From contig JANJGN010000034.1 of assembly GCA_026770705.1 (NCBI GenBank), forward strand, positions 15,686,001 to 15,750,000: DNA of 64,000 nucleotides, in the 5' to 3' direction. The position numbers and the translations under genes were made by a program. The DNA is from Isurus oxyrinchus. Its lineage: Eukaryota. Of the stretch, positions 30,901-62,432 are shown piece by piece (the first letter of the stretch is position 1; the number at the start of each line of letters is the position of its first letter). The notes under the pieces are model-generated. The model made no database searches, was not told the DNA's origin, and worked only from the letters and a program-made list of their open reading frames with translations.

Positions 30901-31030
30901 CAGATTGCTCCCTGAAAAGAGAGAATGTGCAAGGTTATGGGGATAAGGCAGTGGAGTGAGACTGGGCCAATTGCTCTTTCAGAGAGCCAGTGCAAACACA
31001 ATGAGCCAAATGTCCTCTTTCTGCACTGTA
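27905..31030 (+). mobile_element. CR1 LINE, degenerate ORF2 (APE plus RT)
   Basis: IAITETWL, YRAP, SDH, KVPGPEKMHP, YMDFQKAF, LVRPHLEYC. Confidence 0.9.
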
Positions 31031-31089
31031 AAGATACTGTGATATCTGTACAGGTACATTATCCTGTACTCCCCCCTCACTTATTCTGT

Positions 31090-31445
31090 AAATCAGCTGC
31101 TGCTGCTGTCAATATTAACTATCAAAAGGAAATTGGATGAATTATTAAAGGGAAGGATAATTACAGGGAGAACAAAAATTTGCAAAACTGATTTGGCCTT
31201 GCAAGAGATAAAGTCATTTCAGAAGCAGCTGGCTGCTGCAGGGAGAGATCATTTGTCTCTGGGTGAATGAAGTTAAAAAGGGACAAAGTGTCTCTTCCTC
31301 AAACCCGTTTCTCGATCTTGTGCTTAAAGTGATACAACCCCACCCTCTGCTGGCGGATGGAAGCTACTACACAAACAGAGGGGAATATTCAGGGATTCAG
31401 CAAGAGAGCAGGTCAATCAAAAATGACAGGGAAAAGTGTGGTTCA
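31090..31445 (+). repeat. About 350-bp spacer element, inverted copy of about 45850-46205, with a CTCF-like motif
   Basis: ORFs 31263(+) and 46033(-) give nearly the same peptide; CCAGCAGAGGGTGG on the opposite strand. Confidence 0.75.
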
Positions 31446-31517
31446 GTATCTTCAGAGGAAAGCTGTAACGTATATGTCGGGTGAAGTAGAAATTAAGTTC
31501 TATTTTTGATTGGAAAA

Positions 31518-31548
31518 TCAGGGGAGAGCGCCAGCGCAGTACCCCCAC
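31518..31548 (-). pseudogene. RNU1: U1 snRNA 3'-end fragment
   Basis: CAGGGGAGAGCGCCAGCGCAGTACCCCCAC resembles the reverse complement of U1 stem-loop IV. A 3'-box-like TCAAAAATAGA follows on minus. Confidence 0.55.
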
Positions 31549-32539
31549 ACCTGGAGTCACATCTCGACCAGACTGGGTAAGGTTGGCAGGTTTCCATCCC
31601 TAAAGAGACATCAATGAACCAACTGGGGTTTTACCACAATCCAACAGCTTCATGGTACTTTCATTGCAACTAACTTCAGATTTCCAGATTTTCAGACAGT
31701 GCAGTGCTCCCTCAGTACTGAGCCTCGGACAGTGCAGCACTCCCACAGTAGGGATATGGTATTTTCTGGGAACACTAGGATTTATGCACTGAGTATTTAT
31801 GGAGTGGGAATTGAGACAGTTAAACTGTGGCCTATTTACTGTGTGGATCCAGGATCACACGGATTTACAGGACCAGTTGTGAACAGCAGCAGATTGTTAG
31901 AGGGGAGTCGCACAGACTCCAGGGTCTGAATGGGTCACTCCTGTACCTGGGAACAAACTGAACACTGCAATGGGAAGGAAGGGACAGGAAGGGGCTCACT
32001 CTCACAGACTCATTCTTTGGTGAAATATCACACAGCATTTCAAACCTTCAAACCTTTCTATCCAGCATGATCAAATGTAAGAGCTGAAAACACATGTAGT
32101 AGTTTAGAAACAGATTTACCTGGTACAGGCGTGGTCGGTACAGGTGTTTGAGGTCGCTCTAAAGAAAACATCATGTGTTTAGTATTGTGTGTGAAACAAA
32201 CTGCAGAAATGTTCAAAGACTCTATTGGGCTTTAGGGAAACACATCCAGGGAGGAACGAGACTCGGATCAAACTGATTGGGAAGGATCAGGAACAGGGTC
32301 GGCAGAGGGAAAAATTCAACAGGATTGCATTAACTGTGGTGGGTAGAATGGAAGTTTTCCAGAGTTACCCTGAGCAGGATCATTCCCAGCAGCCTACATC
32401 CCCCTGTGGAGAGAATCCTCCCAGCATCCTGGGTCTACTGGGATACACTTTCAAGGTAAGCGCACTGGGTCTTGTAAAGGCTGCCTGAGAGGTGCGATGG
32501 GCCCCACCTCCTGCACCCCAACATCTGGAGACAGACAGA

Positions 32540-33450
32540 GCTCTTTGCTGGAGAGTGAGTGCAGCTTGATAGCTCCATTAACTCCTTCCATCACCCAGTT
32601 TGACAGCTCTGTCCTTCAGGGCTCCATCAGCTTGGTCAGTGATGGTATTACTGACCCACCCTTGGTGATGGACAGTCAAGTCCCCACTCAGTACATTCTG
32701 TGTCCTTGCCACTCTCACTGCTTCCTCCAAGTGGTGTTCAGCATGGAGGAGTACTGATTCATCAGCTGAGGGAGGGCAGTAGGTGATAATCAGCAGGAGG
32801 TTTCCAGGTCTGTGTTTGATCTGAAGCTGTGAGACTTCATGGGGTTCAGAGTCAATGTTGAGGATACCCCGCACCACTCCCTCCGGACTGTATACTGCAC
32901 CTCTGGTGGGACTGTCCTGCCATTGGGACAGAATATACTCAGGGATGGTGATAGAGACTGGGATTCAAGGTTAATTCTGTGAGTATGACTCTGCCAGACA
33001 GCTCTCCCAACTTGGACATCAGATGTTAGTGAGGGGACTTTCCAATGTCAACTGGCCTGGGTTTGTCTGTGTTGTTTCCTGATTCGATGCCCGGGGTGAA
33101 GCCAGTGATGATTCAGTTTTATTCTATTCTTTCTTTCCAATGGTTTGATATCAATTCATTTTTAACTGCCCTCTGACCTCCTAGGCCAGCTTAACCAACC
33201 AGTTTACGGTGGGACTGGGTAAGGACAGCAGGTTTCCTTCCCTCAAGGGACATTCATGAACCAGTTGGGGTTTTACAACAATCCAACAGCTTCAGGGTCA
33301 CTTTTATTGCAACTAACTTTATATTTCCAGATTTTTATTTAATAAACTGAATATAAATTCTGGAAGTGCCATGCTGGGATTTGAACTCTCATCCTCTGGA
33401 TTGTTAGTCCAGGCCTCTGTATTACTAGTCTAGTACCATAACCACTGAAT
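32540..33450 (-). mobile_element. 5' part of the tRNA-headed LINE (head plus APE fragment) inside the IgV-stalk intron
   Basis: ORF 32578-32877 has APE motifs; the SINE-like head lies at 33150-33450. Paralogous copy at 57080-57970. Confidence 0.7.
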
Positions 33451-33504
33451 TACCAAACCCATACAGAGATTAAATACAGAATACCTGAAGCAGAAACCTC
33501 TCAC

Positions 33505-33848
33505 CTGTCACAGAAAGATGGATGATATCAGTTTGCTCCCATTTATAACCCACAGCTATCCTTTTGTAAATGTGACATATATACTGGTTCTGGTCTGACT
33601 CCCTGAGGTCAGAGATCAGAACTGACCAGTTGCCTTGTTCCAGTTGATCTTTGAACAGGTTTGTTCTGTTTCTGAATCGTGGATCTTGTTCTGTCAAATC
33701 ATTGTTCCGAGTGATGAACTTATGCAAAATTTCAGCCTTGGCTGTCTCCCAGACTACCAGTAAATCAGAGACTGAGGCATTGCCTTCGTAGGTACAGGGC
33801 AGCACAACTGCTCCCCAAGGAACCCAGAAACTGGGACAGGCGAGTCAC
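33505..33848 (-). pseudogene. IgV exon of left paralog (B7/BTN-like V-set), frameshifted near its start
   Basis: ttttccag|GT...ACAG|gtgaga boundaries; LPC...W...QDPRFRNRT.LF...GNWS.LISDLR.SD...Y.C. Reads GAGCAGTTGTG where the right copy reads GAGCAGATTGTG. Confidence 0.8.
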
Positions 33849-34469
33849 CTGGAAAAGATTGAAAGTATTTATCCATAGATATAACCTCCCTGCTGGTACA
33901 TTATATCCCAAGTTTCACATGGTTACACTGCGATGCTCGATTGACAAGATACACTGATCAGTAACTCACTGCTTTCATTTCTGTGGGAAGGTTAAAGCTC
34001 AGGAATTAAGGGCCTTCAACTAAAACCAGCCTGTGCTGGGGATTTGTAAGCACAGAGCAGCTGGACAGCACTTTGAATCACATGTTTTTCATTTGTACAC
34101 ATGCTGGGAGAACACATCAGGGTATTGGTCACCTCCCCTTGGGACAAAATTCACAGACTGGGGGTGCACAATGTGAGGTGGAGCTCAGGAACAGAAAACT
34201 GACCCTGAAATGTAAGATTGGAATCCCCAGTCCTGATGACTCTACTCCCCATGCTCTTGGACCATTCCCAGTTCTATTTGATCCCAGGACGGTCTCAGAC
34301 TCCTGATCCCAGTGCTCATGACCCCATCCCAGTCCCACCAGATCCCAGTCACCCATCCGTGTCACCCAGTGTTGCTCAGTGTCCAAATCCCACTCTTCAC
34401 ATCACAGGGGTTAATCTGAAGACATTAACTGCCCTCCTTTCAACTCTCATGATCATTATTTTATGAATA

Positions 34470-37370
34470 AAGTATAGTTTTGGAGAAAGAAATCTGAATG
34501 AACATTCCAAATCATTTCAAAATGGTCATTACACAAAGAGCAATGAAATTCAAATTTGACATAATGTTCCACTTGAGATACCTCAATACCACCGTGATAC
34601 ATGTGACATTTAATATATCAAACCAATGTCTAGCATACAGCCCCAGGGATCTATACAATTCCCAGCCTCTCTGTGCGCTCTATCTGGAAGGTCTTAGACA
34701 GTGACCTTGCCCCATTGCATCTTTACGCCGGCTGCTCCAAGCAGTCGTGTGTGTCTCAGCACGTGGTCCTGGTTCTTGGAATGTGCCAGTCTGCAACACT
34801 CGGTCAGGGACAACTCTTTGCACTGGAAAACCAACAGGTTTCGGGTAGACCAAAGTGCGTTTTTCACTGAGTTGATGATCCTCCAGCTGCAGTTGATGTT
34901 TGTCTCGGTGTGTGTCCCTGGGAACAGCCCGTGGAGCGTACAGTCCTGTGTCACGGAACTGCTCAGGATGAACCTCGACAAAAACCACTGTGTCTTGTTC
35001 CAGACCTTCTTTGCAAAAGCACATTCTACAAGAAGTTGAACAATAGTCTCTTCCCCACCATAGCCATCTTCAGGGCAATGGGGGTGAGACTCCTGGCATG
35101 TAGGAAGGTTCTGACGGGGAGGACCTTTCTCACCACCAGACAAGCCATGTCTTGGTGCTTGTTGGAAAGTTCTGGCGACGAGGCTTTCTGCCAAATGCCT
35201 GACAGTCTACACAGGGAACCATCCAACAGGATCCATCATCTCCTTTTCCCACAGGGCCTCAAGGACATTGTATGCAGGCCACTGCCTGATGGGCTTGTGG
35301 TCAGAAGGCATTTTCTGCATAAACTTCTCCATGAGGGACAGGTGGTACGGCATGGTCCAACTATTTGGAGAGTTCCGCGGCAGCGTGGCCAGACCCATCC
35401 TTCACAACCTCAGCACAGAGTGACACTTGCTGTTTGCATACCGAGGGTCTACGCACAACTTGGTGCGACTACACAAAGATGGCCAGCAGGATGAGGGCGA
35501 TGTTGAGCACATCTGTCTCCCACCCACACCTCTCTATCCAGAGCCTCTGGCATCCCCATGGACACAATCCATCTTTGACCTCCGGATAAAAAGTTGAAGG
35601 TGGTTCGGCTGACCACTGCTGCACAAGATCAGGGTACGGGCAACACCTGCACCATGTAAAGCAATGCCCAGAGTGCCTCACACCTCATAATCAATCCTCT
35701 CATTCCCAGATCCTTCCTGATGGACTCAGCAAAGGATTCTACGCAACACACAAACAGGACAGGGGAGAGAGGGCAGCCCTGCCTGACTCCAGATTTCATT
35801 GGAAAGCTTTCTGATTCCCTCGCATTGATTGAAACTACACTAGTGATGTTTGTGTAGAGCAGTTGGATCCAATTGCAGATTACCTCCCCAAACCCCATTT
35901 TGGAGAGCACATCCACTATGTAGGTGTGCGTTATTCCGTCAAAGGCCTTCTCCTGGTCCAGGCTGATGAGGCAGGTGTCCACACCTATGTCCTGTACATA
36001 GTCTTGCACTCCTCAGGGATGAGATCTTCCCAAAGGGTACAACACAGGTCTGGTCAGGCTGGACATCAAATCCAAAGCAGAGGTGACCCGATTGGCAATG
36101 AGCTTGGACCAAATTTTATAGTCCACATTCAGCAGTGAAATAGGTCTAACATTTCTAATTTCCTCCCTTTCCCGCTTCCAACTGTAGGTGGGGGTGATGA
36201 TGCCTTTCCTCATGGATTCTGACATGCTGCCGGCCAGAAGCATACTCTCGTACACTCCCAGGGCCGGGCTGCGCTGGTTGTGTTGCTGTTCTCACAGTCC
36301 TGGAGCTGGGGAACGTTGGCAGCGATGCTGCTCCCAGTGACCCGCAGGTTTTCACTGGGCCCCTGGCCACCTCTGGTGTTTCTCAGCTGGGAACCCTTGG
36401 ACTCCATTACTGCCTTGGTGCTTTGCTGTTTTTCTGGTTGGTAGCGGTTTTCCAGCCCTTCCTCATCTGAGGAGCAGCTGCCGCTGGTGTCTGCTTGGGA
36501 TATTTGCTGCTACTTGCTGCTTGCTTGGATAGCAGCTCTTCCCTTCTGTAATCTTTTCCTCTAAGTTTCTTCTTTTCGCTGTTTGTTAGCCTCCTTGTTC
36601 TGATGGTGCCTCCTCTCCCATCGACTCTGCTTCCAATAGGGAGGCTGAGCAATGTGATCCATTTCTGGAGAGCTCACCACTTCTTGCTCACAACCCTTCC
36701 CCTCTTTCCCACTGCCTTGTGCACCGAGTGCCTTCTGGGAGGTTGGTGCATGTACCTCCCTTGAGGCAGTCCTGCTTGTTGCTCCTGATTTGATTGCCTG
36801 GGGAAGTAGCTAGCACTGCGCTTTGGGCAGGCCTTGTACAGATGGCCGACCTCCCCACCCAGGTGGCAGCATCTGCTCTCTCTACAGTCTTTGGTTAAGT
36901 GGCCTTCCTCCTTGCCGTTTCGACAGAATGTTGCGCTGGTGTTGGTGGCCACATGTCCAATGGGCTGTCCCACGTACACCAAATAGCCTCAACTTCCTCC
37001 GGTGCTGAAGCTGGAGGGAGGGTGGAGAATGATTCAGTTGGCATCTACCTTCAAGGTCACCCTGACCTGTTGTTTGATCACCCAAATGCCATATAAATCC
37101 TTGACTTCTGTGCTGCTTTCAGCCAACTCAATGTACGTGGCGAGGAACACGAGTACATCCAGCACAGCTTGAACGTGTGGATGGTGACCACTGCAATGAC
37201 AGAGGGCACAGGAGCTCAGCAGTGAGGATGGACAATGGCCCTACCTTCCTTTCTCTTTGAAAGCCTTCAGAACCTTGACACATCCTGTGGATTTCAATGT
37301 CAATTGACATTGAAATACCCGCCAGTGGGGAAATCTCGCTGGCGGAAGATATCCACGGCTTCTAACCCAC
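34470..37370 (-). mobile_element. Tx1/L1-clade LINE, heavily deleted (ORF1 zinc knuckles, RT, C-terminal zinc finger)
   Basis: CRNGKEEGHLTKDC and GHLYKACP, RPISLLNVDYKI, SLDQEKAFD, GVRQGCPLSP, EETIVQLLVEC. Confidence 0.8.
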
Positions 37371-37376
37371 AAACAC

Positions 37377-38515
37377 TTGAACAGGCCCCCAAACAGTCAG
37401 AGAGAAATAGATGAGCAGATATGTCGGCAAATTTCAGAGAAGTGTAAAAATAATAGGGTAGTAATCGTGGGGGATTTCAACTTCCCCAACATTAACTGGT
37501 TAATTAGCGTAATGGGTTTAGAGGGAGCAGCATTCTTAAAATGCATCCAGGAGAGCTTTGTAAGCCAGTATACAGAGGGTCCTACAAGAGAGGAGGCGGC
37601 CCTGGATTTAATTTTAGGGAATGAAGCCGGGCAAGTGGTAGAGGTATCGGTGGGGGAGCATTTTGCAGATAGTGATCATAACTCCATTAGATTCCAGGTT
37701 GTTACAGAAATGGACAAGGATGGGCCAGATATCTAAATTGGGGGAAGGCCAATTTTAAAAAGATCAGATATGATTTGGCCAGAGTGGACTGGGAGCAGCT
37801 ACTTTTAGGTAAATCTGCATCAGAGCAGTGGGACTCATTCAAGAAGGAAATAGGGAGAGTACAGGGGCCAACATATTCCAGTAAAGATAAAGGGTGGGAC
37901 CAACAAATCCAGGGAACCCTGGATGTCGAGGGATATTCAAGATTGGATAAAGAGAAAAAGGGAGGCTTATGGCAGATTCCATTGGCTCAAAACAGCGGAA
38001 GGCCTCGAGAAGTATAGGGAGCATGAAAAAACATTGGCAGATAAAATATAGGAAAATCCAAAGTTATTTTACAAGTACATTAAGAGTAAGAGGATAACTA
38101 GGGAAAGAGTAGGGCCCATTAAGGACCATAGTTGTAATTTGTGTGGGGAGCCAGAAGACCCAGGTAAGGTTTTAAATGAATACTGTGTGTCAGCGTTCAC
38201 AGGGGTATGACCTGGGTATGGAAATCAGGCATAAGAACTGTGGTTTAATTAAAGAAATTAGAATAGAAAGGGAGCAGGTTCTAAGTGGTCTGGCAGGCTT
38301 AAAAGTAGATAAATCTCCAGGCCCAGATGAAATGTATTCCAGGCTGTTGAGTGAGGCAAGGGAGGAGATAGCAGGGGCGCTGGCAATAATTTTCAATACC
38401 TGTCTGATCTAGTGCTGGAAAATGGGGGTAGATTAGTTAGGTACTTGTTTGACCGACACAGACTCGATGGGCCGAAGGGCCTTTTTTCTGTGCTGTAGAC
38501 CTCAATGACTCTATG
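37377..38515 (+). mobile_element. CR1 LINE fragment nested in the Tx1-like element
   Basis: VGDFNFPNINW, LDLILGN, SDHN, KSPGPD. Confidence 0.8.
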
Positions 38516-39164
38516 AGCACCCGCTTAACAAAATAATGCCGGTCCGCAGGTACCTCGGTCCAATGTCTTCCCTGTCACCTGAACAGTTATCAGCAACCTC
38601 TGGCCTAGTGCCTGGTGCTTTTCCGTTAAGCAGGTGCTGGAGTTTTTGCTGTATCGACGACATTAGGGCTAAACCAGAATTAAGCTAAGACCAGCATTAA
38701 GATCCACTAAAAGCAGCAGAGCTCAAACTTTGTCTTTGTTGCTGTTTTCTTCATCATCATCATTGTCGTCACTTTGAATTCACCATCAAAATCCACACAA
38801 AAAGTTTCAGGATCATGATGTGTGATGTGAACCTACTGTGTCCAGATCCCACTGTTCACATCACAGGGGTTAATCTGAAGACATTAACTGCCTCCCTTTC
38901 AGCTCTCAGGATCATGATGTGCAATGTGAACCTACTGTGTCCACTCCCTCAATGGCTCCACTTGCAGTACACACAGCTCCTTAAAGCAAGATGAATTCCT
39001 GATTCCCCCCTCCCTTTGATCACTGCTGAAATGTTCCAGCAGTCACAGCACTTACCTGAAACAGCAGCAACAACACTGAGCAGCAACAGGAGTAGTTTCT
39101 GTAAGTTGTGTCCCTGCAACAAGAAAACACAGTTACCCCCCTTTGCAACAGATTCACTTCTGAT

Positions 39165-39423
39165 AAAAACAAAAAAAACTGTGGATGCTGGAAATCCAGA
39201 ACAAAAACAGAATGACCTGGAAAAACTCAGCAGATCCGGCAGCATCGGCGGAGAAGAGAAGAGTTGACGTTTCGAGTCTTCATGACCCTTCAACAGAACG
39301 AGGTGAATCCAAGGAGAGGGGTGAAATATAAGCTGGTTTAAGGTGGAGGGAGAGAAGTGGGGGTGAGGGAGGGCGGTGGTGTTGTAGGGACAAACAAGCA
39401 CTGATAGGAGCAGATCATAAAAC
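39165..39423 (-). mobile_element. Solo Penelope-like repeat with 12-bp TSD
   Basis: TTCACTTCTGAT at 39153-39164 and 39424-39435; absent at the paralogous site near 62160. Confidence 0.8.
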
Positions 39424-39454
39424 TTCACTTCTGATCTGGTTGATGACTGACAGG

Positions 39455-39525
39455 AACGGGATACGCATGCGCCTCGGAGCTGGAGAAAGAGGCCGGGCCC
39501 GGGAGAGGCGCATGCGCACTGAACC
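39455..39525. promoter_or_regulatory. CpG-rich segment with two NRF1-like motifs
   Basis: ACGCATGCGC at about 39463 and GCGCATGCGCA at about 39508. Confidence 0.45.
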
Positions 39526-39579
39526 GGCGAACAATGCTTGGCATCTCCCGCTACACAAACTGAGACTCACCCGGCGTTG

Positions 39580-40427
39580 NNNNNNNNNNNNNNNNNNNNN
39601 NNNNNNNNNNNNNNNNNNNNNNNNNNNNNNNNNNNNNNNNNNNNNNNNNNNNNNNNNNNNNNNNNNNNNNNNNNNNNNNNNNNNNNNNNNNNNNNNNNNN
39701 NNNNNNNNNNNNNNNNNNNNNNNNNNNNNNNNNNNNNNNNNNNNNNNNNNNNNNNNNNNNNNNNNNNNNNNNNNNNNNNNNNNNNNNNNNNNNNNNNNNN
39801 NNNNNNNNNNNNNNNNNNNNNNNNNNNNNNNNNNNNNNNNNNNNNNNNNNNNNNNNNNNNNNNNNNNNNNNNNNNNNNNNNNNNNNNNNNNNNNNNNNNN
39901 NNNNNNNNNNNNNNNNNNNNNNNNNNNNNNNNNNNNNNNNNNNNNNNNNNNNNNNNNNNNNNNNNNNNNNNNNNNNNNNNNNNNNNNNNNNNNNNNNNNN
40001 NNNNNNNNNNCTTCCCCTCTCCCTCCCCCTCCCTCTCTCTCTCTCTCCCCCTCCCTCTCTCCCTCTCTCTCTCCCCCTCTCTCCCCCCTCCATCCCTCTC
40101 TCTTCCTTCCCCTCCCCTCTCTCTCCCTCCCTCCCCCTCACTCTCTCCCTCCCCCTCCCTCCCCCTCCCTCTATCCCTCCCCCTCCCTCTCCCTCTGTCC
40201 CTCCCTCCGTCTNNNNNNNNNNNNNNNNNNNNNNNNNNNNNNNNNNNNNNNNNNNNNNNNNNNNNNNNNNNNNNNNNNNNNNNNNNNNNNNNNNNNNNNN
40301 NNNNNNNNNNNNNNNNNNNNNNNNNNNNNNNNNNNNNNNNNNNNNNNNNNNNNNNNNNNNNNNNNNNNNNNNNNNNNNNNNNNNNNNNNNNNNNNNNNNN
40401 NNNNNNNNNNNNNNNNNNNNNNNNNNN
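39580..40427. other. Assembly gaps flanking a CT-rich low-complexity tract
   Basis: N runs at 39580-40010 and 40213-40427. Confidence 0.98.
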
Positions 40428-41611
40428 TTTCACTCCAACCTGATCCTCATCATTGCTCCGGTCACTTTCCAGCCTTTTTGGATAATCACACACTGTCTCC
40501 AGTAACAGACCCTCATTCCCAGCCCATGGTCCGGTCTGAACCCTGGGCTCTCCCTCCCTCCCTCCACCCGGGACACGGGCTCCAGTCCTCAGTCTGAGCC
40601 CAGCAGCCAGGGGTGAAAACTGTCCAATAATCCCAGTCAGAGAGGATGACGTGTCCCCGAGTCCATCCAACCAGGAGCCGGAGAATAAAGAGCTGAATCC
40701 CGGTGAAGATAAAGGAAAGTTTCCCCCCCCCCCACCCCCCACCCCGGATCCCCCTCCCTCCGCCCGGGTGTGAGACACTGACAGGACCTGCAGCTCCTTT
40801 CCATCCATTCCCCGAGAGAGGGATCCGCTCAGAGCCGGGGACAGGGGGACCACAGGAGAGGGCGAAACGGGTTAGAAACACAATCCAGAATTAAAAATAA
40901 CCGGATGGTATTGAAATCAGTAAAACATCAAAATCAACACAACATTAAATCTCAGTTACAACCGCAACATGGAACTAAATATGAAACTGACTCAACCTGA
41001 ACATAAAACTGACTCAACCTGAACATAAAACTGACTGAACTGGAAACATAAAACTCAGCAACAAAAAACAACTTCAAGGTTGAGATATCTGCAAACAGAC
41101 AACACACATGACAGGACTCTGGCTTGAGAGGGGGGGTGGGTGGGGTGGATCATTCCCGGTCTCTCCTCCCTCTCCCCCCCGGGGCTGAGGTGAACAGTTT
41201 CCCTGGAGGCAAATGTCGGATTATTAATTCACTCCAATCGCCAGAGGGGAAAAGCAACTTTTAACCCGGCTTTTCCTGACAGAGGCTGGGACATTATTCC
41301 ACACCCCACCCCCCAAGCTCACTGACAATGGGTCAGTCCGGCCCCGCCCCCAACTCACCGACAATGGGTCAGTCCGGCCCCGCCCCCAACTCACTGACAA
41401 TGGGTCAGTCCCCCACCCCACCCCCTCCACAACCCCCCTGGTAAAGATCGAATCTTGTCCCTAAAGGGTTAAAGGTCATTTCTGGGACAGAGACTGGTTA
41501 ACGCCTTCCAGGGTTAATGGGGTTTTCACCTCCAGCCCCACCATCCGGCGATGATCCTTTATTTAATAGTTTTCATTTCTTAACTTATTAACATTTTAAA
41601 TTGACTCAGTG

Positions 41612-51680: not shown

Positions 51681-52919
51681 TGGAGGCAGGAGGAGAAACT
51701 GGCAGCCAAAGAGAATTTGTGTTTGTGGGGGCTGCAATGTAACTCCATTTATATTAAAAGAGAATTTTTCCTTAAAAGGTGTCTGCAATTCAGTTGTCTG
51801 GGCCCCAAGCTCTGGAAAACTGATCTCATTTTCATCCTCTGACCTAATATCTCCAGATGTGGTTTGGTATCAAATTCTCTTTTAGCATGTTCCTGTGAAG
51901 CACCTTGGGACATTTATAAAACACCTTTAACATTATAAAATATAACTTGTTCATGACGAGGTTCAACAAGTCTGGACTCCTGTCATTATTCAGTTGCTAT
52001 TGTGATGTGTGAACACTATTTCCATGTTCCTGTATTTTCTCTCCTTGTCTGTGTAAGAGTCTCCACCCCTGAAGTTGAATTGCTCTGCTTGTTCATGCCA
52101 AAACCACTTCCACCCCAGGAAAGGTGAAGGGAAATCACACACTCCCTCCCTCCCAATCCCTCTCTCCACGCCTTCCCTTCCCCAGCACCCCAATCACCAG
52201 AAAGGCTGACTTGATGATCATTCCTGTTCTCTGGAAGTTCCCACAATCACAGATACCAGTCTTCAGCCAATCTCATTCACATCTCACATCGGGAGACTTA
52301 CTGCCTGCAGACAGCATGACCTCTGTTCAGGCAGTGACTACCAGAGTCATTAAACATCAGACTGTAGATCCACTCATTTCAGCATCGGTCTATCTTTAAT
52401 TAGACCTTGGATCAAAAATGACATGTAGAAAAGTAAAAAATATACCAGACAGAAATGTATAGACACATTCAGAAAATATTTACATTAGAAATTTTATACA
52501 TCCTTTGTAAAATATGACCACTCACTGTTTGCCACAAAAAACTATATAAAAAAGACAAAATTAAAATATACCGAACATATCTACATAATTTCTGGCAAGA
52601 AACAGTTTCAATCCGTGAACCATCTACAATCTGAATTCAGGATATAAAACAGTTGCTGATAATAACGTCGTTGCTGGTTTTTACCGAGTGGATGCTGCTG
52701 CAGAGGGAGTTTCTGAAGCCTCTTCCCATATTTACCGCTATGGGAGCACAAATCACGACAAGACTGCAGTGGTTCAAGTAGAGATGGACAATAAATAGGA
52801 CCCTGGCAGCATCATCCACACCAAGTGAATAAACACGCCAGGAACTGCCAGATGTTCCCACTCACTCATCAGTAGGAAGTTACCATCTCACACAGGGAGT
52901 GATCAATGGGTTACACAGC

Positions 52920-53132
52920 CCCACCCCCCCCTCCACTTCTCTCTCTCTCCGCCCCCCCACCCCCCCACCCCCACCCCCGACACACACCTTAAACCAGCTT
53001 ATATTTCAACTCTTTCTTGGACTCGAACTCAAAGTTCTGTCGAAGGGTCATGAGGACTCGAAACATCAACTCTTTTCTTCTCCGCCGATGCTGCCAGACC
53101 TGCTGAGTTTTTCCAGGTAATTCTGTTTTTGT
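52920..53132 (+). mobile_element. Solo Penelope-like repeat inserted at the IgV gene stop codon
   Basis: Matches the PLE terminal repeat; the paralogous site near 24671 is empty. Confidence 0.85.
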
Positions 53133-53176
53133 TAAAGATGGTCCTGTACATTCCTGAGATTGGGTTTGGACACAGT
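53132..53176 (-). CDS. Exon 7: TVSKPNLRNVQDHL*
   Basis: cctgttacag| acceptor; the stop position is conserved in the paralog (LRNIQDNL*). Confidence 0.6.
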   Translation of the reverse strand, partial: TVSKPNLRNVQDHL

Positions 53177-56100
53177 CTGTAACAGGAATGCTGAGAGATA
53201 ATGCAGAGAATGAAATACTTGGACAGTTTTCTTAGTAAAGGGATTATAGTTCCACTGGGAGTTTCCCTCCTGAGATTGTGCTGGTCAGGACGGTTTGTAC
53301 AAAGTGGGAAGTGATTGTTGATCCCAATCCTGAGCTCAGACATTCCACCAGGAATCACTAGATAACCACAATACTGGCCTGATTTCCCCCTCCCTGACAC
53401 AGGCTCAGTGCTGGGGAAACTCAGTCAGTGCTGGACAGTCCTGTTCCCCACAAGGTTTTCTTCTCCATCCTGATGCTCAGGTGCTGTTGTCACAAGGCCC
53501 CGTGCTTCACCTGGACAGCTCACCCCTGTCAAAGGGACATCATTAGGTCCTTCATTTCGACTGTTGGAGTGTCGATTTTGAACACAATACCTAGGAGAGA
53601 AAAACCATTACTGTGACAATGTAAGACGCTTCATTTTGAGTGTTCTGGTGTCTATTTTGTGTTCTGGTGTCTATTTTGTTTCCTAGGACAGAAAAACCAG
53701 CAGAGTTCAGGCGACATTAAAAGGATCCAACACTTTGGACAAGTGTGTAAAGGAGCCGTACAGGAGCACAGACCTGATTAAATTACACTCAACATCCTGG
53801 GCACCAATGGCAGCTGGAAAATGGGTCACAGGAGCCGCATGCTGATGGAGCACAGACTGTAGAGGAGAGCAGGCTCACAGGGGAGGCAATGGGCAAGAGC
53901 TGGACCCTCCACAGGAGCTGTGCTGACCGACAGAGGGAGGGCCAGAGGATAGAGTTAGAGAACTCTACAATAGTTCCTCCTCCCACTGCAAGGGGTGTAT
54001 GTGGAGACAGGTGGTGAGCACGGAGATGCGGATATTGAGTGAGCGAAGGGAATTCGAGATGGCCTTCCCAGCGACTGAATCATCTAATATCCGGGTTAAA
54101 GGGCGGTGGTTTGGAAAGTGCAGGAGGAGACTGAACAACAACAACTTGTGTTTATATAGAACCTTGAACAGAACACATCCTAAATGCTTATGAAACAAAA
54201 TTTGACACTGAGCTACACAAGGGTTCAGGCAGTGAGGTAGGCTTTAAGGAGCAAATGGTGTTGTTGGGAGGTAAGGAAGAGAGACAGACACAGACACACA
54301 CAGACAGGCAGAGGTTGAGGGAGGAAATTCCAGAGTTCGGGCCCAGGCAGCTAAAGGCTCAGCCACCAATGATGCAGCGATGGAAAATCAGGGATTCTGA
54401 AGACACCAGAATTGGAGGAGTGCAGAGATCTGAGGGTTGTGGGGCGGAAGGAGGTTACACATGGGGAGGAGTGAGGCCACAGAATGTTTGATAAAAGGGT
54501 GAGAATGTTAAAATCTGTCTATCTCAGTCCTAAATAAAGTCCAAGATGAACAGCGGCAGATTTACAATCAAACCCTTGTGGCACGGGACCCCCCAAACGA
54601 CAGGGGGGGGGGGGGAGATACCAAAATGAGTGAGTGAGTGCTGAACTGTTGGAAGTGCTGTCTTTCAGCTGAGATGTTAAACTGCCTGCTCAGCTGTCTA
54701 GCAGCCTCCTGTGCAGCGAAGTGTTCGGGCACAGCACGCCAAAATTATTCACCAAAACCACTTCCCGGTCTCTGGGCTCAAGCTCGGCCAGGCAATGCAC
54801 TGTGGGCAGCGCACAGCTACCGTTTTCCGTAGCCGGCCAAGCCATAAGACCATAAGATGCAGGAGCAGAAATAGGCCATTCAGCCCATCAAGTCTGCTCT
54901 GCCATTCAATGAGATCATGGCTGATCTGATAATCCTGAACTCCACTTCCCTGCCTTTTCCCCATAACCCCCGATTCCCTTACTGATTAAAAATCTATCTC
55001 AGGCTTGAATATACTTAACGACCCAGCCTCTACAGCCCTCTGCAGATTCACAACCCTCAGAGAAGAAATTCCTCATCTCTGTATTAAATGGGCGAACCCT
55101 TGCTCTGAGAGTATACCCTCTGGTCCTAGACTCTCCCACAAGGGGAAACAACCTCACCGCTTCTACCCTGTCAAGCCCCTTGAAGAATCTTTTATGTTCA
55201 AATAAGGCCACCTCTCATTTTTCTAAATTCCAATGAGTACAGGCCCAACCAACTCAACCTCTCCTCATAACAAAAGCCCCGCAAGCAGCTGTTGACCATG
55301 TGTCAATCCCACCGTCCATCCCGGAGTTATGGCCCAGAAAGCAGTACTCGGTCTCTGCACCATCCTGCAGCCGGGCAGAGAGCCAGCGGCAGGGCACTCG
55401 CACTGGACTGCGCAGGATGACAAGCTGGAAGTGATTGGATAATGCTGCTCAATGATAGGGTGGATTGAAGCATCCTCACAGCTCAGTAAATGGACAGGTT
55501 TAGATGTCAGCAACATTTAAGAAAACATTATAAAACAAAAACAGGATTAAAATGGAAACAATGAAACATTCTTCAACTCACCATTTTTGTTGCCTTTGGA
55601 ATACACAAACCGCAATTCCAGAAAGCAAAACTCCAGCAAAAAAACCAACAGCAACTCCAACTCCAATTCCAAATCCAAATCCAAGTCCAGGCTGTGCTCC
55701 TGTACAAAGTACAGGACCTGGAGACAGAATGAAGACATTAACAGACTGGGACACACTAATAAAATTAACAGCAGACACCTTCGGCACCTAGTGTTTCAGA
55801 ACCAACCCCACTACAAACAGATCCTTGGTTAATTCTAGACCTGGAGGGATGTGAGAGGATACCAATAATCACACACACACCAGGCCACCCCACAGCTTCC
55901 TGCACACACACACACACTGTCCCACAATGTGATAGATACATGCTTTCCAAATTGAGATAACTGGACACTGACCAGCAACAACCTCCGTCCAATTAAACCC
56001 AACAGTCCGCTGAAATAGAGTGGGAATTTTAAACTAAATTGCAGATCAGGAAAGCCACGGGATTGGGTGTAACACGGATTTACACCTGGGACAATATTAC

Positions 56101-59100
56101 TCTCCACTGACTTCAACCAGTGTTACACCCGATCCCTTCACCCAACAGGACGGTTTGGTTATAATTGTACCAAGACTTTCCACACAGAATTCCAGAATGC
56201 TAGTGGGAAGCAGGAATCCTCAGAGTTTTGTATCTGAGAGACAGGAAGGTGAGACTCAAACAGAAATAACAGTTCCAGGTAGTTTCAGGGCCAGTTACAA
56301 GTAACAGTGACCCACACCACTCACTCTCACAGAATCATTCTATGGTGAAATATCACACAGCATTTCAAACCTTCCAACTTTACTACCTGTCTCTGCAGCA
56401 TGTTCAAATGTAAGAGCTGAAAACACATGCAGTAGTTTAGAATCAGATTTACCTGGTACAGGCGTGTTCGGTACAGGTGTTTGAGGTCGCTCTAAAGAAA
56501 ACACCATGTGTTTAGTATTGCGTGTGAAACAAACTGCAAAAATGTTCAAAGACATTTTTTGGGCTTTAGGGAAACACATCCCAGGAGGAACGAGACCCGG
56601 ATCAAACTGATCGGGAAGGATCAGGAACAGGGTCGGCAGAGTGAAAAATCCAACAGGATTGCATTAACTGTGGGGGGTAGAATGGAAGTTTTCCAGAGTT
56701 ACCCTGAGCAGGATCATTCCCAGCAGCCTACATGCCCCTGTGGAGAGAATCCCCACAGGATCCTGGGTCTACTGGGATATACTTTCAAGGTAAGCGCACT
56801 GGGTCTTGTAAAGGCTGCCCGAGAGGTGCGATGGGCCCCACCTCCTGCACCCCGACATTTGGAGCCAGATGGAACAAATTTCTGGAGAGTGAGTGCTGTG
56901 GGGGGGGGAGTGATCACTGGAATCCTCCACATTGGTCTAAACCCCATGAACTCTCACAGCTTTTGGTCAACAATGGGCCTGGAAACCTCCTGCTGCTTAT
57001 TACCTACTGACCTCGCTTAGCTGATGAATCAGAACTCCTCCATGTTGAACACCACTTGGTGTGTGCGGTGAGTGCATTGGTGAGCCAGTGCAGCTTGATA
57101 GCAACGTTAACTTCTTCCATCACCCAGTTTGACAGCTCTGTCCTTCAGGGCTCAGCCAGCTCGCTCAGTGATAGTATTACTGAGCCACCCTTGGTCATGG
57201 ACAGTGAAGTCCCCACTCAGTACATTCTGTGTCCTTGCCACCCTCACTGCTTCCTCCAAGTGGTGTTCAGCATGGGGGCGTACTGATTCATCAGCTGAGG
57301 GAGGGCAGTAGCTGATAATCAGCAGGAGGTTTCCAGGTCCATGTTTGACCTGAAGCTGTGAGACTTCATGGGGCTCAGAGGCAACGTTGAGGATTCCCAG
57401 TGCCACTGACTCCGGACTGTATACCACTGTGCCCCCACCATGTGACAGGACATACCCAGGGATGGTGATAGAGGAGTTTGGGATGTGGGGTTAATTCTGT
57501 GAGTATGACTCTGCCAGACAGCTCTCCCAACTTGGACAGCAGTTCCCAGGTGTTAGTGAAGGGACTTTGCAGTGTCGACTGGGTTGGGTGTGTCTTTGTT
57601 GTATCCTGATTCAATACCTGGGTCACAGCCAGTGATCCATTCAGTTTTATCCTGTTTTGCTCTCCAGCCTTAGATACAAACCGATACAGGTCAGTTAATA
57701 AGCAACTAGGTTAACGTTGGACTGGAGTCACATAGAGAACAGACTGGGTATGGACGGCAGGTTTCCTTCCCTAAAGAGACATTAGTGAACCAGTTGGGGT
57801 TTTACAACAATCCAACAGCTTCAGGGTCACTTTTCCTGGGACCAAATTGATATTTCCAGGTTTGTACTTAAAGAACTGAATTTAAAATCTGACAGTGCCA
57901 TGGTGGGATTTCATTCTCTGGATTATTAGTCCAGGCCTCTGGATTGCTCATCTAGTAATTTAACCACCGACCCCATAAAATCAGGGATTAAATACAGAAT
58001 ACCTGAAACAAAAGCCTCTTACCCAACACAAAGAGATGGACGAGATCAGATTTCACTAAATAATGGAACTCCTCTTTCTTCTTGTAAATCTGACACTCAT
58101 ACACTTTCGTGTCAGACTTCCTGAGGTCAGAGATCAGAATTGACCAGTTGCCTTGTTCCAGTTGATCTTTGAACAGTTTTGTTCTGTTTCTGAACCGTGG
58201 GTCTTGTTCTGTCAAATCATCATTGCCATCCACAAACTTGTGTAAAATTTCAGATCTTGATATTCCCCAAATCACCTGTAAATCTGAGACTGGGACATTC
58301 CCTTTGTAGGTACAGGGCAGCACAATCTGCTCTCCAAGGAACCCGGAAACTGACCAGTCACCTGGAAAAGATTGAAAGCATTTATCCACAGAGATAACCT
58401 CCCTGCTGGTACATCACATCCCAAGCGTCACGTGGTTACACTGCAATGCTCGATTTGCAAGATGCACTGATCAGTAACTCACAGCTTTCATTCCTGTGGG
58501 AAGGTTAAAGCTCAGGCATTAAGGCCTTCAACTAAACCCAGCTTGTGCTGGATATTTGTTCACACAGAGCAGATGGACAGTATTTGAATCACGTTTTCCA
58601 TTTATACACAAGCTGGGAGAACTCATCAGTATATTGGTCACCTGTCCTTTGGAGGAATTCAGAGACCGGGGGTACACAATGTGTGGTGGAGCTCAGCAGC
58701 TGAAAAATGACCCTGAAATGTAATGATATGAACAGGTGGGGTGGGGGTTCCCAAGGATGTAGGAAGGGGTTTGGACAGCTTGGGGGTGGGAGGGAATGAC
58801 GGTCGAATACACTGGGTAGGGGTTTGAGGCAGAACCTGATTTACTTTCTTTATTCTTTCATGGGATGTGGGCATCGCTGGCAGGTCCAGAATTTGTTGTC
58901 CACCCCGAATGGTCCTTGATCTGAGTGGCTTGCTCGGCTACTTCAGAGGACAATTCAGAGTCAACCACATTGCTGTCTGGGTCTGTAGTCACAAAGTCAG
59001 GACAGCAGATTTCGCTTCATAAGAGGGCATTCATAAACCAGATGGCTTTTTACTAAAATCAGAAAGTTTCTTTCATATATTGTAGGTTCGTATTATTATA

Positions 59101-62100
59101 TATTATGATAAAATTATCATAGATTTATTAACTAGTTGCCATGGTGGGATTTGAACTCATGTCCCCAGAGCATTAGTCTGGGCCTCTGGGTTCCTAGTCC
59201 TGTGACAGTGCCACTATTACCATCTCTCCACTGGACTGAAAGGGATTGAGGCAATGTGTATTCTCACCACCCTCAAGATTACAAGGTCAGAGGATACAGG
59301 TGCAGGAGTAAGCCATTTGGCCCCTCAAGCCTGCTGTCTCATTCTGAAGGAATAACAGAAAATCCTGGAAAAACTCAGCAGGTCTGACAGCATCTGTGGA
59401 GAGAGAAATAGAGTCAAAGTTTCGAGTCTGTATGACCCTTATTCAGAGCTAAAGAGAGGTAAGAAATGTGATGAAATTTATACTGTTTTAAGGTGGTGGA
59501 AAAGGTGAAGCTGGATAGAAGGCCAGCGATAGGTGGGGATAGCAAAAGAGAAATTGACAAAGATGTCATGGACGAAAAAAACAAAGGGAGTGTTAATGGT
59601 AGTGGTAAGGACTAAAGGAGGTGCTGATAGTAGCTTAAAGGTCAGACAGCAGAACGTGTTAATAGCAGGACAAGGGTTATCACTGTGAAAAAACAACATG
59701 GAAGAAGTAACAGCTGGTCCTTTTGAGGGATGTGTGGGGGAGGGGGAAAAGGATGGAAAAGGGGATAAAATGTTATTTCAGAAGATGTGGCACCTTATTG
59801 AGTGCCTTCTAGAAATTGAAATACATGACATCAACTGGTTCCTCTTTATCCATCCAGCTTGTTATGTCCTCAAAGAATTCTACTAAATTTGTCAAACAGT
59901 TTCCCTTTTGCAAAACCATGTTTACTCCACCTGATTGTGTTATGATTTTCTAAACGTCCTTCTACTACCTCCTTAACAATGGAATCCAGGTGGTGGTGGT
60001 GGCAGAGGTTGAGGTTTTTGAATGAAATGTCGAAGGAGCCTTGGTGAGTTCCTGCAGTGCATCTTGTAGATGGTACACACTGCTGCCACTGAGTCGATAG
60101 TGGATGTTGAAGTTGGTGGATGGGGTGCCAATTAAGTAGACTGCTATGATCTGAATGGTGTCAAACTGCTTGAGTGTTGCTGGAACTGCACTCATCCAGA
60201 CAAGTGGAGATTATTCCATCGTACGCCTGACTTGTAGATGGTGGGCAGGCTTGGCAGGGGAGGGTAACGAGGTGAGTGACTCTCATCAGGATTCCCAGCC
60301 ACTGACCTGCTCTTGAAGCCATGGTATTTATGTGGCTGGTCCAGTTCAGTTTCAACTCAATGCTAACCCTCCAGGATATTGATAATGGCAATGACAGACA
60401 TTAGACTAACTGGCCTATATAGTTTCTAGTTTTTTGTCTCCTTCCTTTCTTGAACAGAAATGTAAAATTTGCGAATTTCCAATCCGGTGGGACCTTTACA
60501 GAATCTAGGAAATTTTTTGTGGATTATAATCAATGGATGCACTATCTCTGCAGCTGCTTCCTTTAACTCCCTAGGATGCAGGCCATCAGGTCCGTGGGAC
60601 TTGTCAGCCTTTTGTCCCACTGGTTTTTCTCTGGTGATCGTGATCTTTTAAGTCCCTCTCTCCCTTTTTGCTCCCTACTTTTCTATTATTCCTGGGATGC
60701 TTTGTGTGTCTTCTGCTGTGAAAATACAAAAAGCGTGTTCAATGTCTCTGTCATTTCCTTGTTTCTCATTAATTCCTCAGTCTCACTCTCTAAGGGATCA
60801 ACGCTCATCATCACTATTCTTTTTATACTTGTAGAAGCCTTGACTGTCTGTTTCTATATTTTTTGCTAGTTTCCTCTTATACTCCAATTTCTGTCTCTAT
60901 ATTATTTTTTAGTCATCCTTTGCTGGTTTCTAAAATTTTCCCAATCTTCTGCCAATTTCTAATCTTTGCAGCATTGTACATCTTTTCTTTCAAGTTGATT
61001 TCATCCTTAGTTAGCCACACATGGTGCACCCTTTCTTTCTTAATGGAATATATTTTTGTTGAGGTTTACTGAATATCTCCTTAAATTTCTGCCAATGCTT
61101 CTCTACTGTCCTTTATTTTAACCTATGCTCCCAATCCAGTTTAGCCAGCTCTGCCTTTGTACCCCTGTAACAGTCTTTATTTAACTTTAAGGCACTAGTT
61201 TCAGACCCAAAGTTCTCACCCTCAAACCGAATGTGAAATTCTATCATGATCATTCTTCCCTAGAGGATCCCTGATATGAGGTCAGTTATTAGTCCTGTCT
61301 CATTGCACAATACCAGGTCTAAAGTAGTACATTCCCTGGTTGGCTCCAGAATGTATGTTTCTAAGAAGCTGTCCCAAAGAAACTCTATGGACCCATTCTC
61401 CAGGCTAGCTTTGCCAATTTAATTTGTCCAATCTAAATGAAGATTAAAATCTCTCATAATTATTGCAGTACTTTTTTTTTTTAAACAAGTAACCTCCCCT
61501 CCCCCATTTTATTTATTTATACTCTGTCCTACAGTATAGCTACTGTCAGGGGGCCTATAAACTTGTCCCACCAGTAACTTCCTTCTTTTGCTTCTTCTCA
61601 TCTCCAGGCTGATTCTGCATTTTGATTCTCCAGACCAAGATTATTTCTGATTATTGTACTGGTTTTATCCTTGATTAACAGAGCCACCCCACCTTATTCT
61701 CCTTTCTTCCAGATCTTCAGAAATGTTCAAATACACTGCAATATTCAAGTCCTGGCATGGTCACCTTGCAACCATTTGTCTGTAACAGCAATATCAGACT
61801 GAGTCACTGGGTCCCAGTCACCCATCCCAGTGTCACCGAGTGTTGCTCAGTGTCCCACTGTTCACATCACAGGGGTTAATCTAAAGACATTAACTGCCTC
61901 CCTTTCAGTTCTCAGGATGATGATGTGTAATGTGAAGCTACTGTGTCCACTCCCTCAATGGCACCACTTGCAGTGCACAGCTCCTTAAAGCAAGATGAAT
62001 TCCTGATTCCCCCCTCCCTTTGATCACTGCTGAAATGTTCCAGCAGTCACAGCACTTACCTGAAACAGCAGCAACAACACTGAGCAGCAGCAGGAGTAGT

Positions 62101-62432
62101 TTCTGTAAGTTGTGTCCCTGCAACAAGAAACCACAGTTACCCCCTTTACAACAGATTCACTTCTGGTTGATGACTGGGCTGGGCCCAGCTAAGCGCATGT
62201 GTAGGTTTGATCCCCGCCCCTTTTTACCTGCAGCTCCTTTTCCATCCATTCCGGCCAATACAAGCTTAAAGGTAAAAGTCGATCCTTTCACCATTTCAAA
62301 AATCTACAGCGATCCGATAGAGGAAACTGGCTTTTTATTCACGAATAGAACTGCAGCATCTCAATCAACACATCCGAAAACTACCGGCCGCTCAGTCTCT
62401 CCCTTTACCTCAAAACAACTCGTTTGTCTCAT
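53132..62432 (-). CDS. Single-IgV type-I membrane protein, B7/butyrophilin/MOG-like, 7 coding exons, 235 aa
   Basis: join(62432-62409, 62117-62060, 58361-58023, 56491-56453, 55717-55582, 53590-53524, 53176-53132) = 708 nt. All introns are GT-AG, phases are 0,1,1,1,2,0, and there is no internal stop. Confidence 0.8.
53524..53590 (-). CDS. Exon 6: cytoplasmic (W)YCVQNRHSNSRNEGPNDVPLTG
   Basis: tttttctctcctag| acceptor and |gtgagc donor; 67 bp, same length as paralog exon 25003-25069. Confidence 0.7.
55582..55717 (-). CDS. Exon 5: transmembrane segment
   Basis: ctgtctccag| ...GLGFGFGIGVGVAVGFFAGVLLSGIAVCVFQRQQK |gtgagt. Confidence 0.8.
56453..56491 (-). CDS. Exon 4: Pro/Thr stalk ERPQTPVPNTPVP
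   Basis: ttttctttag| acceptor and CAG|gtaaat donor; 39 bp, conserved in the paralog. Confidence 0.75.
58023..58361 (-). CDS. Exon 3: IgV (V-set) domain
   Basis: 339-bp phase 1-1 exon with B-strand Cys, C-strand Trp and DxxxYxC; QDPRFRNRTKLF...GNWS is typical of B7/BTN V domains. Confidence 0.9.
58850..59228 (-). mobile_element. tRNA-headed SINE (same family as 3752-4090)
   Basis: B-box GAGTTCAAATCC and the shared LINE tail on minus. Confidence 0.7.
59355..61790 (-). mobile_element. Nested Penelope-like repeat, CR1-group LINE and CR1 fragments in the leader-IgV intron
   Basis: PLE repeat at 59355-59760; LNWTSHINT at 60161-60391; KSHGPDGLHPR at 60426-60620. Confidence 0.7.
62060..62117 (-). 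CDS. Exon 2: signal peptide GHNLQKLLLLLLSVVAAVS
   Basis: ttcttgttgcag| acceptor and CAG|gtaagt donor; the same peptide is encoded at 39056-39113. Confidence 0.85.
62409..62432 (-). CDS. Exon 1 coding part: MRQTSCFE
   Basis: AGAATGA start and GAG|gtaaag donor in phase 0, matching exon 2. Confidence 0.6.

Follow-up and report, generated by a model that had tools for sequence, protein, structure and literature searches.

The question raised by this locus of the shark Isurus oxyrinchus, which lies in a window of 64,000 nucleotides (contig JANJGN010000034.1, positions 15,686,001 to 15,750,000), is where in the B7 superfamily to place a gene encoding a single immunoglobulin V domain, described in an earlier note on the same DNA as a B7/BTN/MOG-like receptor gene, and what its product is likely to do. 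The analysis described here indicates that the gene is real and that it belongs to a tandem family of type I membrane proteins so far found in sharks alone, which on balance probably serve as variable surface ligands for immune-cell receptors.

Exon structure and transcript evidence

The gene lies on the minus strand, as do all parts of the window described below. The seven-exon model of the earlier note can be built, with six of six introns bounded by GT-AG and a single open frame of 235 aa, and its order of leader, IgV domain, Pro/Thr-rich stalk, transmembrane segment and tail holds; its sixth intron and seventh exon do not. The leader (signal peptide) exon occupies 62060..62117 (phase 0-1) and the B7-type IgV exon, identified by Pfam V-set (1.3e-10), PDB and fold matches, 58023..58361 (phase 1-1). 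They are followed by a Pro/Thr-rich stalk exon of 13 codons (56453..56491, phase 1-1), a Gly-rich transmembrane exon (55582..55717), and the coding part of the last exon, the cytoplasmic tail (53425..53590), which is based on unspliced contigs and the tails of homologs. A second possible in-frame acceptor is present 18 nt further into the transmembrane exon. No Ig family was found in any of the gene's nine intronic open frames of at least 90 aa.

Splice joints were read from the contigs of four runs, which represent at most three samples from three studies and whose RNA status is an automatic guess, no run being recorded as RNA. The leader-V joint (a skip of 3698, CT..AC) and the V-stalk joint (a skip of 1531) are present in all four runs and the joint between the transmembrane and tail exons in three of them, so that introns 2, 3 and 5 of the six predicted are spliced; no joint for intron 1 (first exon to leader) or intron 4 (stalk to transmembrane exon) is among the 15 of 44 joints listed. 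Intron 6 is contradicted by unspliced contigs, its proposed donor being bridged by one (run X2, 53387-53577) and its proposed acceptor, at an exon 7 placed at 53132-53176, by two (X3, 53107-53416, and X6, 53106-53546). Beyond the proposed donor the frame of exon 6 continues for another 54 codons, to a stop at 53427-53425, which gives a corrected product of about 253 aa with a tail of 60 aa rather than the roughly 40 previously described, and this read-through tail is the form carried by the homologs. The former exon 7 falls within a likely 3' UTR (52400..53424, from contig cover), which also includes a short interspersed repeat at about 52915-53133, recognized by repeat matches, and an ATTAAA near 52400.

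The start of the coding region is less firmly placed. A candidate first coding exon at 62409..62432 provides an ATG, eight codons, a GT donor and a frame shared with the leader, and the RefSeq model of the white-shark ortholog begins with an identical peptide, but the donor is crossed unspliced by low-depth contigs and the assignment is unproven. The alternative, at 62228..62249, is of the MDGKELQ type usual in the family and carries one extra A, which puts the ATG at 62249 out of frame and leaves a second ATG, at 62245, in frame; the extra base is also present in the sister copies A2 and A3. Contig cover reaches no more than 0-11 over 62289-62600, a stretch that includes the candidate first exon, compared with 22-218 where the leader joins V, but this difference carries no weight in the choice of first exon.

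The letters of the contigs at diagnostic sites match A2 and A3 (98-99% identical) and differ from those of the window copy; the splicing of the gene is thus seen in contigs with sister-copy letters, and because of those letters the expression of the window copy itself is unproven. The window copy differs from A3 at 97 and from A2 at 212 of 10,234 aligned bases, it is part of an inverted, mirrored version of the A2/A3 units, the first ATG normally used in the family is out of frame in it, and sister letters occur in the contigs at 58231 in four of four runs and at 53589 in three, all of which would suit a recent duplicate that is silent, or a haplotype that was duplicated falsely, with expression coming from the sister copies alone. 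This reading is nevertheless distinctly unlikely: the frame and splice sites of the window copy are undamaged, its shifted first exon is common to sister copies whose letters are expressed, and about one third of the X1 depth at position 58090 shows the window copy's own letter. In addition, the contigs come from individuals other than that of the genome, so that the sister letters could be alleles.

Family copies and homologs

The proposed tandem expansion is borne out by a genome-wide count of at least 20 related V exons, a lower bound from the scoring of 150 of 324 candidates, of which 11 are open with both cysteines and 9 are broken. Most lie in two main tandem clusters on the XRCC1/nectin chromosome (12 at C34 15.72-15.90 Mb and 5 at 17.50-17.57 Mb), which flank three ordinary V+C B7-type genes (16.39-16.51 Mb); two others are at 7.6 Mb and one is on C31. 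Nectin-like genes are also carried by C34, while MHC class II alpha is on C21 together with V exons of the BTN type; of 490 unique open frames in the flanks, the 128 scanned against Pfam gave no clear name for the neighbours. ERCC1 was located on an unplaced contig. The window itself contains a broken minus-strand paralog (24900..40808) with a first exon (40788-40808), a leader (39056-39113), a frameshifted V exon of 344 nt (33505-33848), a stalk (32120-32158) and a tail with an in-frame stop (24900-25069), in which no transmembrane exon was found. On the same leader-stalk-transmembrane-tail chassis some members carry two V domains and others a non-canonical Ig-like domain that has no Pfam family, gave no Foldseek match at E 0.001, and gave only matches under 0.9 in an ESM Atlas search. 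Ectodomain exons appear to have been exchanged among the copies.

The gene has not escaped annotation, since its direct white-shark ortholog (V domain 96% identical, with the same architecture and read-through tail) is already predicted as Carcharodon LOC121271073 (XP_041032729.1); that entry is an automatic prediction alone, "uncharacterized" and without a family name or function. Homologs were found in 12 shark species, and all 51 of the 51 listed are from sharks and have no C1/C2-set or B30.2 Pfam domain, in agreement with the proposal of a lineage-specific and perhaps uncharacterised family of surface proteins that have V as their only Ig domain and lack signalling motifs. The representative search covered the best 150 of 4521 matches by total score, so that rays or chimaeras may have diverged members with a single V domain. 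A family profile matched 73 sequences, of which 71 are from sharks, one is unnamed and one is bird ICOSL. About ten conflicting automatic names are attached to the homologs, including MOG-like, BTN-like, SCN4B-like, JAML-like, MXRA8-like and CD276 homolog. A literature search found no published description of the shark family, which subscription papers or supplements may contain; the one supplement of PMC3964593 has no B7 terms.

Classification of the V domain

In the broad sense, a protein belongs to the B7 superfamily if its ectodomain includes one or more IgV domains of the characteristic B7 type (PMC5043582, in part), and the leading matches of the present domain, by sequence and by fold alike, are all from the B7 family. 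B7 ligands in the narrow sense have a V + C ectodomain (PMC11599192, in part), and the present ectodomain is not of this kind, as the V exon is spliced straight to the stalk in the contigs. The domain has the canonical Cys-Trp-Cys, two N-glycosylation sequons and a long F-G hairpin, and its structure was modelled with a pLDDT of 95. The top fold matches of the model, which are tied, are CD86 (Z 18.1, with 108 residues aligned at rmsd 1.4) and ICOSL (Z 17.3, with 113 at 2.0), followed by B7-H4 (Z 16.9); MOG and BG are not among the rows listed in this comparison, and their absence there excludes nothing. Foldseek places PD-L1 and B7-H4 first, and the best PDB sequence matches are B7-H4 and CD276 (E 1.7e-15 and 4e-15) rather than CD86 or ICOSL.

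Of 79 family V domains, 66 have a spacing of 20 residues between the F-strand Cys and the G-strand Leu. The spacing is shorter among shark BTN rows (15-16, 11 of 11) and HHLA2/VTCN1-like rows (15, 8 of 9), while bird ICOSL has 19 and one of the neighbouring V+C genes, that at 16.50 Mb, has 20. A long hairpin of this kind, which the family V domains show, probably marks the CD80/CD86/ICOSL subgroup. In the tree, all 18 of 18 rows with family V domains fall together in a single clade (support 99/100). It is separate from the shark BTN clade, with weak backing from the AU test (p 0.039, lost after correction for three tests), and from the named HHLA2/VTCN1-like V domains (AU p 0.027, also weak). 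In a tree without mammalian rows the family joins bird ICOSL at 93/57, between long branches; two long unnamed rows were left out of the second tree. Grouping of the family with the three neighbouring V+C genes is not rejected (AU p 0.19), which does not show a clade. A separate HHLA2/VTCN1-like V+C gene is found on C18, and the genome also holds a CD276-like V+C gene. The label "BTN-type V" given in the earlier note is accordingly unsupported, given the separate clade, the F-G length and the fold matches, and in its geometry the modelled V domain resembles CD86/ICOSL more than it does butyrophilin, MOG or BG.

Variation, transmembrane segment and tail

Across 54 non-redundant family domains the mean entropy is 2.06 bits on the front face and 0.57 on the back (p 8e-5), for a partition taken from Ig topology and chosen after the alignment had been seen. 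Shark BTN domains also vary more in front (2.05 vs 1.13), so the excess in the family is partly generic. Positive selection on the face was not detected, dN/dS being not above 1 (dN 0.33, dS 0.45); the comparison of the face against whole-exon dS gave 1.34 (interval 0.84-2.17).

The transmembrane exon of the window copy contains six GxxxG motifs and no charged residue. A few orectolobiform members have D, E or K near the start of this exon. A homodimer prediction scored 0.01 and is informative neither for nor against dimers. The tail of the window copy, encoded by one exon, is hydrophilic and ends in an acidic dileucine-like motif, which has the form ExxLL in 33 of 36 family tails and LV in place of LL in the window copy. 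An ITIM, ITSM or ITAM pattern is absent from 37 of 37 homolog tails and from the window copy. The lack of a C domain, B30.2, ITIM and ITAM described for the gene is confirmed.

Discussion

The layout is that of a surface protein, as had been proposed, but because there is neither a tyrosine motif nor a charged transmembrane residue the term "receptor" is doubtful, and by analogy with B7 ligands the family is likely to consist of diversifying ligands and not of signalling receptors. Such a family may have originated from a CD86/ICOSL-type V+C gene that lost its C exon. Binding would occur through the G-F-C-C' face, as in B7 ligands, the transmembrane glycine motifs may favour dimers, the dileucine-like motif of the tail would set trafficking instead of signalling, and copies would turn over by birth and death together with the swapping of ectodomain exons.

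CD86, CD80 and ICOSL share with the family the B7-type V domain, the long F-G hairpin and a short tail without ITIM or ITAM, and bird ICOSL is the nearest named non-shark match of the family profile, but the family differs in having no Ig-C domain, about 20 copies and 21-24% identity. VTCN1 (B7-H4), HHLA2 and CD276 are V+C proteins with a short hairpin, in contrast to the V-only family, and shark BTNs have C and B30.2 domains, a place on the MHC chromosome C21 and an F-G distance of 15-16, none of which the family shares. MOG and BTN genes are MHC-linked, and MOG, which like the family has a single V domain of the B7 superfamily, has after its transmembrane segment a second hydrophobic segment that the hydrophilic family tail does not. 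Chicken BG genes, also MHC-linked, are arranged in tandem, change in copy number and exchange variable segments, or cassettes, locally (PMC5043582, in part). The family likewise combines a single V domain and a transmembrane segment in a tandem array, but MHC linkage is absent (C34, with the MHC on C21), the CDR1 cysteine that forms the BG disulfide dimer has no counterpart (an extra Cys is absent from positions 18-27 of all 79 domains), and the 60-aa tail from one exon differs from the long heptad-repeat tail of BG.

It is unlikely that the proteins are decoys, pathogen docking sites or polymorphic surface antigens like the BG blood-group molecules of chicken, whose front face would escape or trap adhesins and whose dileucine-like tail would internalise cargo. 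Fast copy turnover (9 of 20 V exons broken), a variable face on a fixed frame, ectodomain exchange among copies, nectin-like genes on the same chromosome and the cassette exchange by which BG genes diversify (PMC5043582, in part) agree with such a role; the dN/dS that does not exceed 1 and the missing CDR1 cysteine and heptad tail of BG argue against it. A non-immune adhesion or accessory protein making homophilic contacts through a single V domain, as in MPZ, JAML or SCN4B, is very unlikely. The layout of single V, stalk and transmembrane segment, the Gly-rich membrane segment and automatic names such as SCN4B-like, JAML-like and MXRA8-like would fit, but the best matches, whether by sequence or by fold, all belong to the B7 family, and MPZ/JAML/SCN4B-like adhesion genes are generally conserved and single-copy, whereas the family is expanded and partly decayed.

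The reading as surface ligands can be extended, speculatively and with a low chance of being right, to a shark BG/Skint-like system independent of butyrophilins, in which a C-less CD86/ICOSL-type gene beside XRCC1 would have become a modular chassis with swapped ectodomain exons (V, V-V, non-canonical Ig-like, or both), yielding diversified and possibly polymorphic ligands that select or tune lymphocytes. Lineage-specific expansion within the B7 superfamily is not new as a kind of event, other examples being Xenopus B7H6 and mouse Skint. BG is a known case (PMC5043582, in part), and the V-only layout of BG and MOG would here have arisen again, from another B7 branch. The correction of about ten misleading database names is of practical value, as such names would distort ortholog counts. 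Questions on how T-cell co-stimulation originated take sharks as their reference group. Sharks possess CD28/CTLA4-related, CD28H-like, CD28X and PD-1 genes, and these CD28-family receptors were catalogued recently with no ligands assigned (PMC11599192). A C-less, B7-like shark multigene family off the MHC chromosome provides candidate ligands for them.

Gene model and transcripts

The seven exons of the earlier note can be joined on the minus strand, through GT-AG introns, into one frame of 235 aa. The core exons of this model are sound: the leader exon (62060-62117), the IgV exon (58023-58361; Pfam V-set, E 1.3e-10), the stalk exon (56453-56491), the TM exon (55582-55717) and the start of the tail exon at 53590. 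Contigs assembled from four public runs, which represent no more than three samples and three studies and of which none is recorded as RNA, were compared over 52400-62600; among the 15 of 44 joints listed, which do not include introns 1 and 4, introns 2 and 3 are skipped exactly in all four runs and intron 5 in three, showing spliced transcripts in which V is joined straight to the stalk. One contig of run X2 spans tail to stalk, and the unaligned letters between them, about 129 as estimated from its length, are too few for an Ig-C exon.

The predicted 3' end does not stand. Intron 6 and exon 7 lack support, because the proposed donor is bridged unspliced by an X2 contig and the acceptor by contigs of runs X3 and X6, because the frame of the tail exon stays open past the donor for 54 more codons to a stop at 53427-53425, and because homologs terminate in the read-through tail, with the exon-7 peptide forming the C-terminus in 0 of 30 homologs in one set and 0 of 27 in another. 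Corrected in this way, the protein has about 253 aa, of which 60 rather than about 40 make up the tail, and 53132-53176 is likely 3' UTR adjoining a short repeat. There are two candidate starts. One is an exon at 62409-62432, with which the white-shark ortholog also begins in its RefSeq model; the other, at 62228-62249, is the first exon most members of the family use, but here one additional A throws the first ATG out of frame, so that translation would begin at the second and give 251 aa.

Two plus-strand sister genes on the same contig (C34), at 15.806-15.817 and 15.848-15.858 Mb, differ from the present gene at 212 and 97 of 10,234 bases, respectively. The contigs carry the sisters' letter at 58231 in all four runs and at 53589 in three, and likewise at several diagnostic UTR sites, so that expression is established for the subfamily and not for the present copy. 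Where the TM begins (55652-55689), a 6-base repeat that codes for alternating glycines varies in copy number between the present gene and its two sisters.

Genomic organization

The family is tandemly expanded, as had been proposed: at least 20 V exons, a lower bound, occur in the genome, 12 at 15.72-15.90 Mb, five at 17.50-17.57 Mb and two at 7.6 Mb of C34 and one on contig C31, and 11 of the 20 are open with both cysteines. The copy at 7.60 Mb (L069) has a tail exon of its own. A broken paralog lies at 24900-40808 of the window, which itself spans 15,686,001-15,750,000 of C34 (genome G000). The unit of the first cluster, a two-V gene whose second V is broken plus a gene of the present type, occurs three times, once inverted; the unit is about 40 kb long and its three copies span 15.738-15.858 Mb, the window copy being the inverted one with its axis near 15.775-15.780 Mb, and the triplication could include a false duplication.

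The interval between the two clusters contains three B7-type genes with V+C ectodomains, located at 16.39, 16.46 and 16.50 Mb (loci L020/L064, L075 and L025/L067), beside XRCC1 and automatically named CD276-like in other sharks; in white shark, two of these V+C genes are likewise on one contig with members of the family. XRCC1 is at 16.65 Mb and nectin-like genes are at 13.07-13.73 Mb. In human, XRCC1 and NECTIN2 are markers of 19q13, but correspondence to that region is a lead only, because it depends on a single marker gene and a single class of genes. Contig C21 carries the butyrophilin-type V exons together with MHC class II alpha.

The window contains three reverse-transcriptase frames that are nearly identical (280-1386, 15700-16831 and 43229-45353) and have a GIY-YIG-like motif after them, an arrangement known from Penelope-like elements; CR1/L2-like fragments occur elsewhere. 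Tandem arrays of 43/44 bases (41615-42325 and 62656-63011) and of 33 bases (49588-49941 and 63460-63655) lie upstream of both family genes there. Other pieces of the assembly contain a TPR-nucleoprotein-like frame (L077:794-1102, 15.667 Mb of C34; match just under the cut-off), an adenosine-receptor-like exon (L062:6383-6712, 17.60 Mb of C34) and LTR-element remnants (L078:3324-5135).

Distribution among species

The suggestion of a lineage-specific, uncharacterised family is borne out, in that all 51 homologs retrieved are from sharks (12 species in five orders) and the family is predicted in databases under automatic and conflicting names (CD276, MOG, BTN, ICOSL, VTCN1, CD86, SCN4B, JAML, MXRA8, uncharacterized). 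Matches to the family profile are from sharks in 71 of 73 cases, the others being one unnamed sequence and one bird ICOSL; full family domains score at least 176 bits, compared to 69 for the best bony-fish domain. No ray, chimaera or hexanchiform members appeared in these homolog and profile searches, which could miss diverged members; rays and Heptranchias do occur among the butyrophilins retrieved. The predicted lack of other domains and signalling motifs also holds: C-set or B30.2 Pfam matches were found in 0/51 homologs, and ITIM, ITSM or ITAM patterns in 0/37 tails. Fusion during annotation may account for the database proteins P0261, P0268 and P0040, in which a B7-type V domain is linked to NACHT/NLR domains (horn shark, gar) or a PRDM7-like gene is attached to one of the family (basking shark).

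Origin of the V domain

The best PDB sequence matches are B7-H4 and CD276, and Foldseek matches the predicted V model (pLDDT 95) to PD-L1 and B7-H4. Full structural alignment puts CD86 (Z 18.1, rmsd 1.4, 108 aligned) and ICOSL (Z 17.3, rmsd 2.0, 113 aligned) level at the top, with B7-H4 (Z 16.9), PD-L1 and BTN (16.4) lower. Of 79 family domains, 66 have a distance of 20 from the F-strand cysteine to the G-strand leucine, whereas it is 15-16 in 11/11 shark BTN rows and 15 in 8/9 HHLA2/VTCN1-like rows. Bird ICOSL has 19, and the V+C neighbour at 16.50 Mb, whose F-G hairpin is also long, has 20.

In a tree of 66 rows and 113 columns, without mammalian rows, the family domains fall into a single clade (99/100) whose stem is long, and the tree resolves no sister group for it. 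In AU tests, run after the tree had been inspected, grouping the family with BTN is weakly rejected (p 0.039), as is grouping it with the HHLA2/VTCN1-like rows (p 0.027); a grouping with the local V+C genes is not rejected (p 0.19). A second tree, with bird ICOSL included and two long rows omitted, joins the family to bird ICOSL at 93/57. On this evidence a BTN-type V is not upheld, and the strongest lead, as yet unproven, is an origin from the CD86/ICOSL type.

Alternative ectodomains

Proteins of Hemiscyllium, Cetorhinus and Scyliorhinus have the family TM and tail but another domain of about 90 aa, and one of them also has the family leader and stalk. The corresponding exon in the Isurus assembly (L056:7310-7573 = G000:C34:17,542,310-17,542,573) is phase 1-1 and lies between the leader and V exon of the 17.54 Mb gene, and C34 has other copies of it at 17.01 and 9.76 Mb; in several sharks the domain replaces or precedes V on an otherwise shared chassis. 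This non-canonical Ig-like domain matches no Pfam family and lacks the canonical Ig cysteines and tryptophan, and its moderate model (pLDDT 70) matches Ig-fold chains only (Z 6.2-7.5, rmsd about 3), with scores too low to show kinship.

Proposed function and standing of the family

The single V domain lies close to the membrane, the TM of the present gene has no charged residue and six GxxxG motifs, and ExxLL occurs in 33 of 36 tails, with ExxLV in the present gene. The family's variation falls mainly on outward-facing residues of C, C', F and G (2.06 vs 0.57 bits), a bias that shark butyrophilins show more weakly (2.05 vs 1.13), and dN/dS is not above 1. B7 proteins bind through the C, C', F, G face. 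We infer that the family protein is likely a ligand, possibly a dimer, whose variable face would meet receptors on lymphocytes and whose tail would govern its trafficking. Rival readings are that the proteins serve as a pathogen decoy or blood-group-like antigen, that they are adhesion molecules, or that the present copy is a silent duplicate. For a lymphocyte ligand, the candidate partners are the CD28/CTLA4-related, CD28H-like, CD28X and PD-1 receptors that sharks have according to PMC11599192 or, by analogy with butyrophilins and BG (PMC5043582), T-cell receptors.

No published description of the family was found in the literature search, and the passages searched in PMC12151841 and PMC10751288 do not mention such genes. 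This is a real shark family without a name; its layout is similar to that of BG although it is not itself BG, and it belongs neither to MOG nor to the butyrophilins. We conclude that it is an apparently new variant within the B7 superfamily, BG-like in layout.
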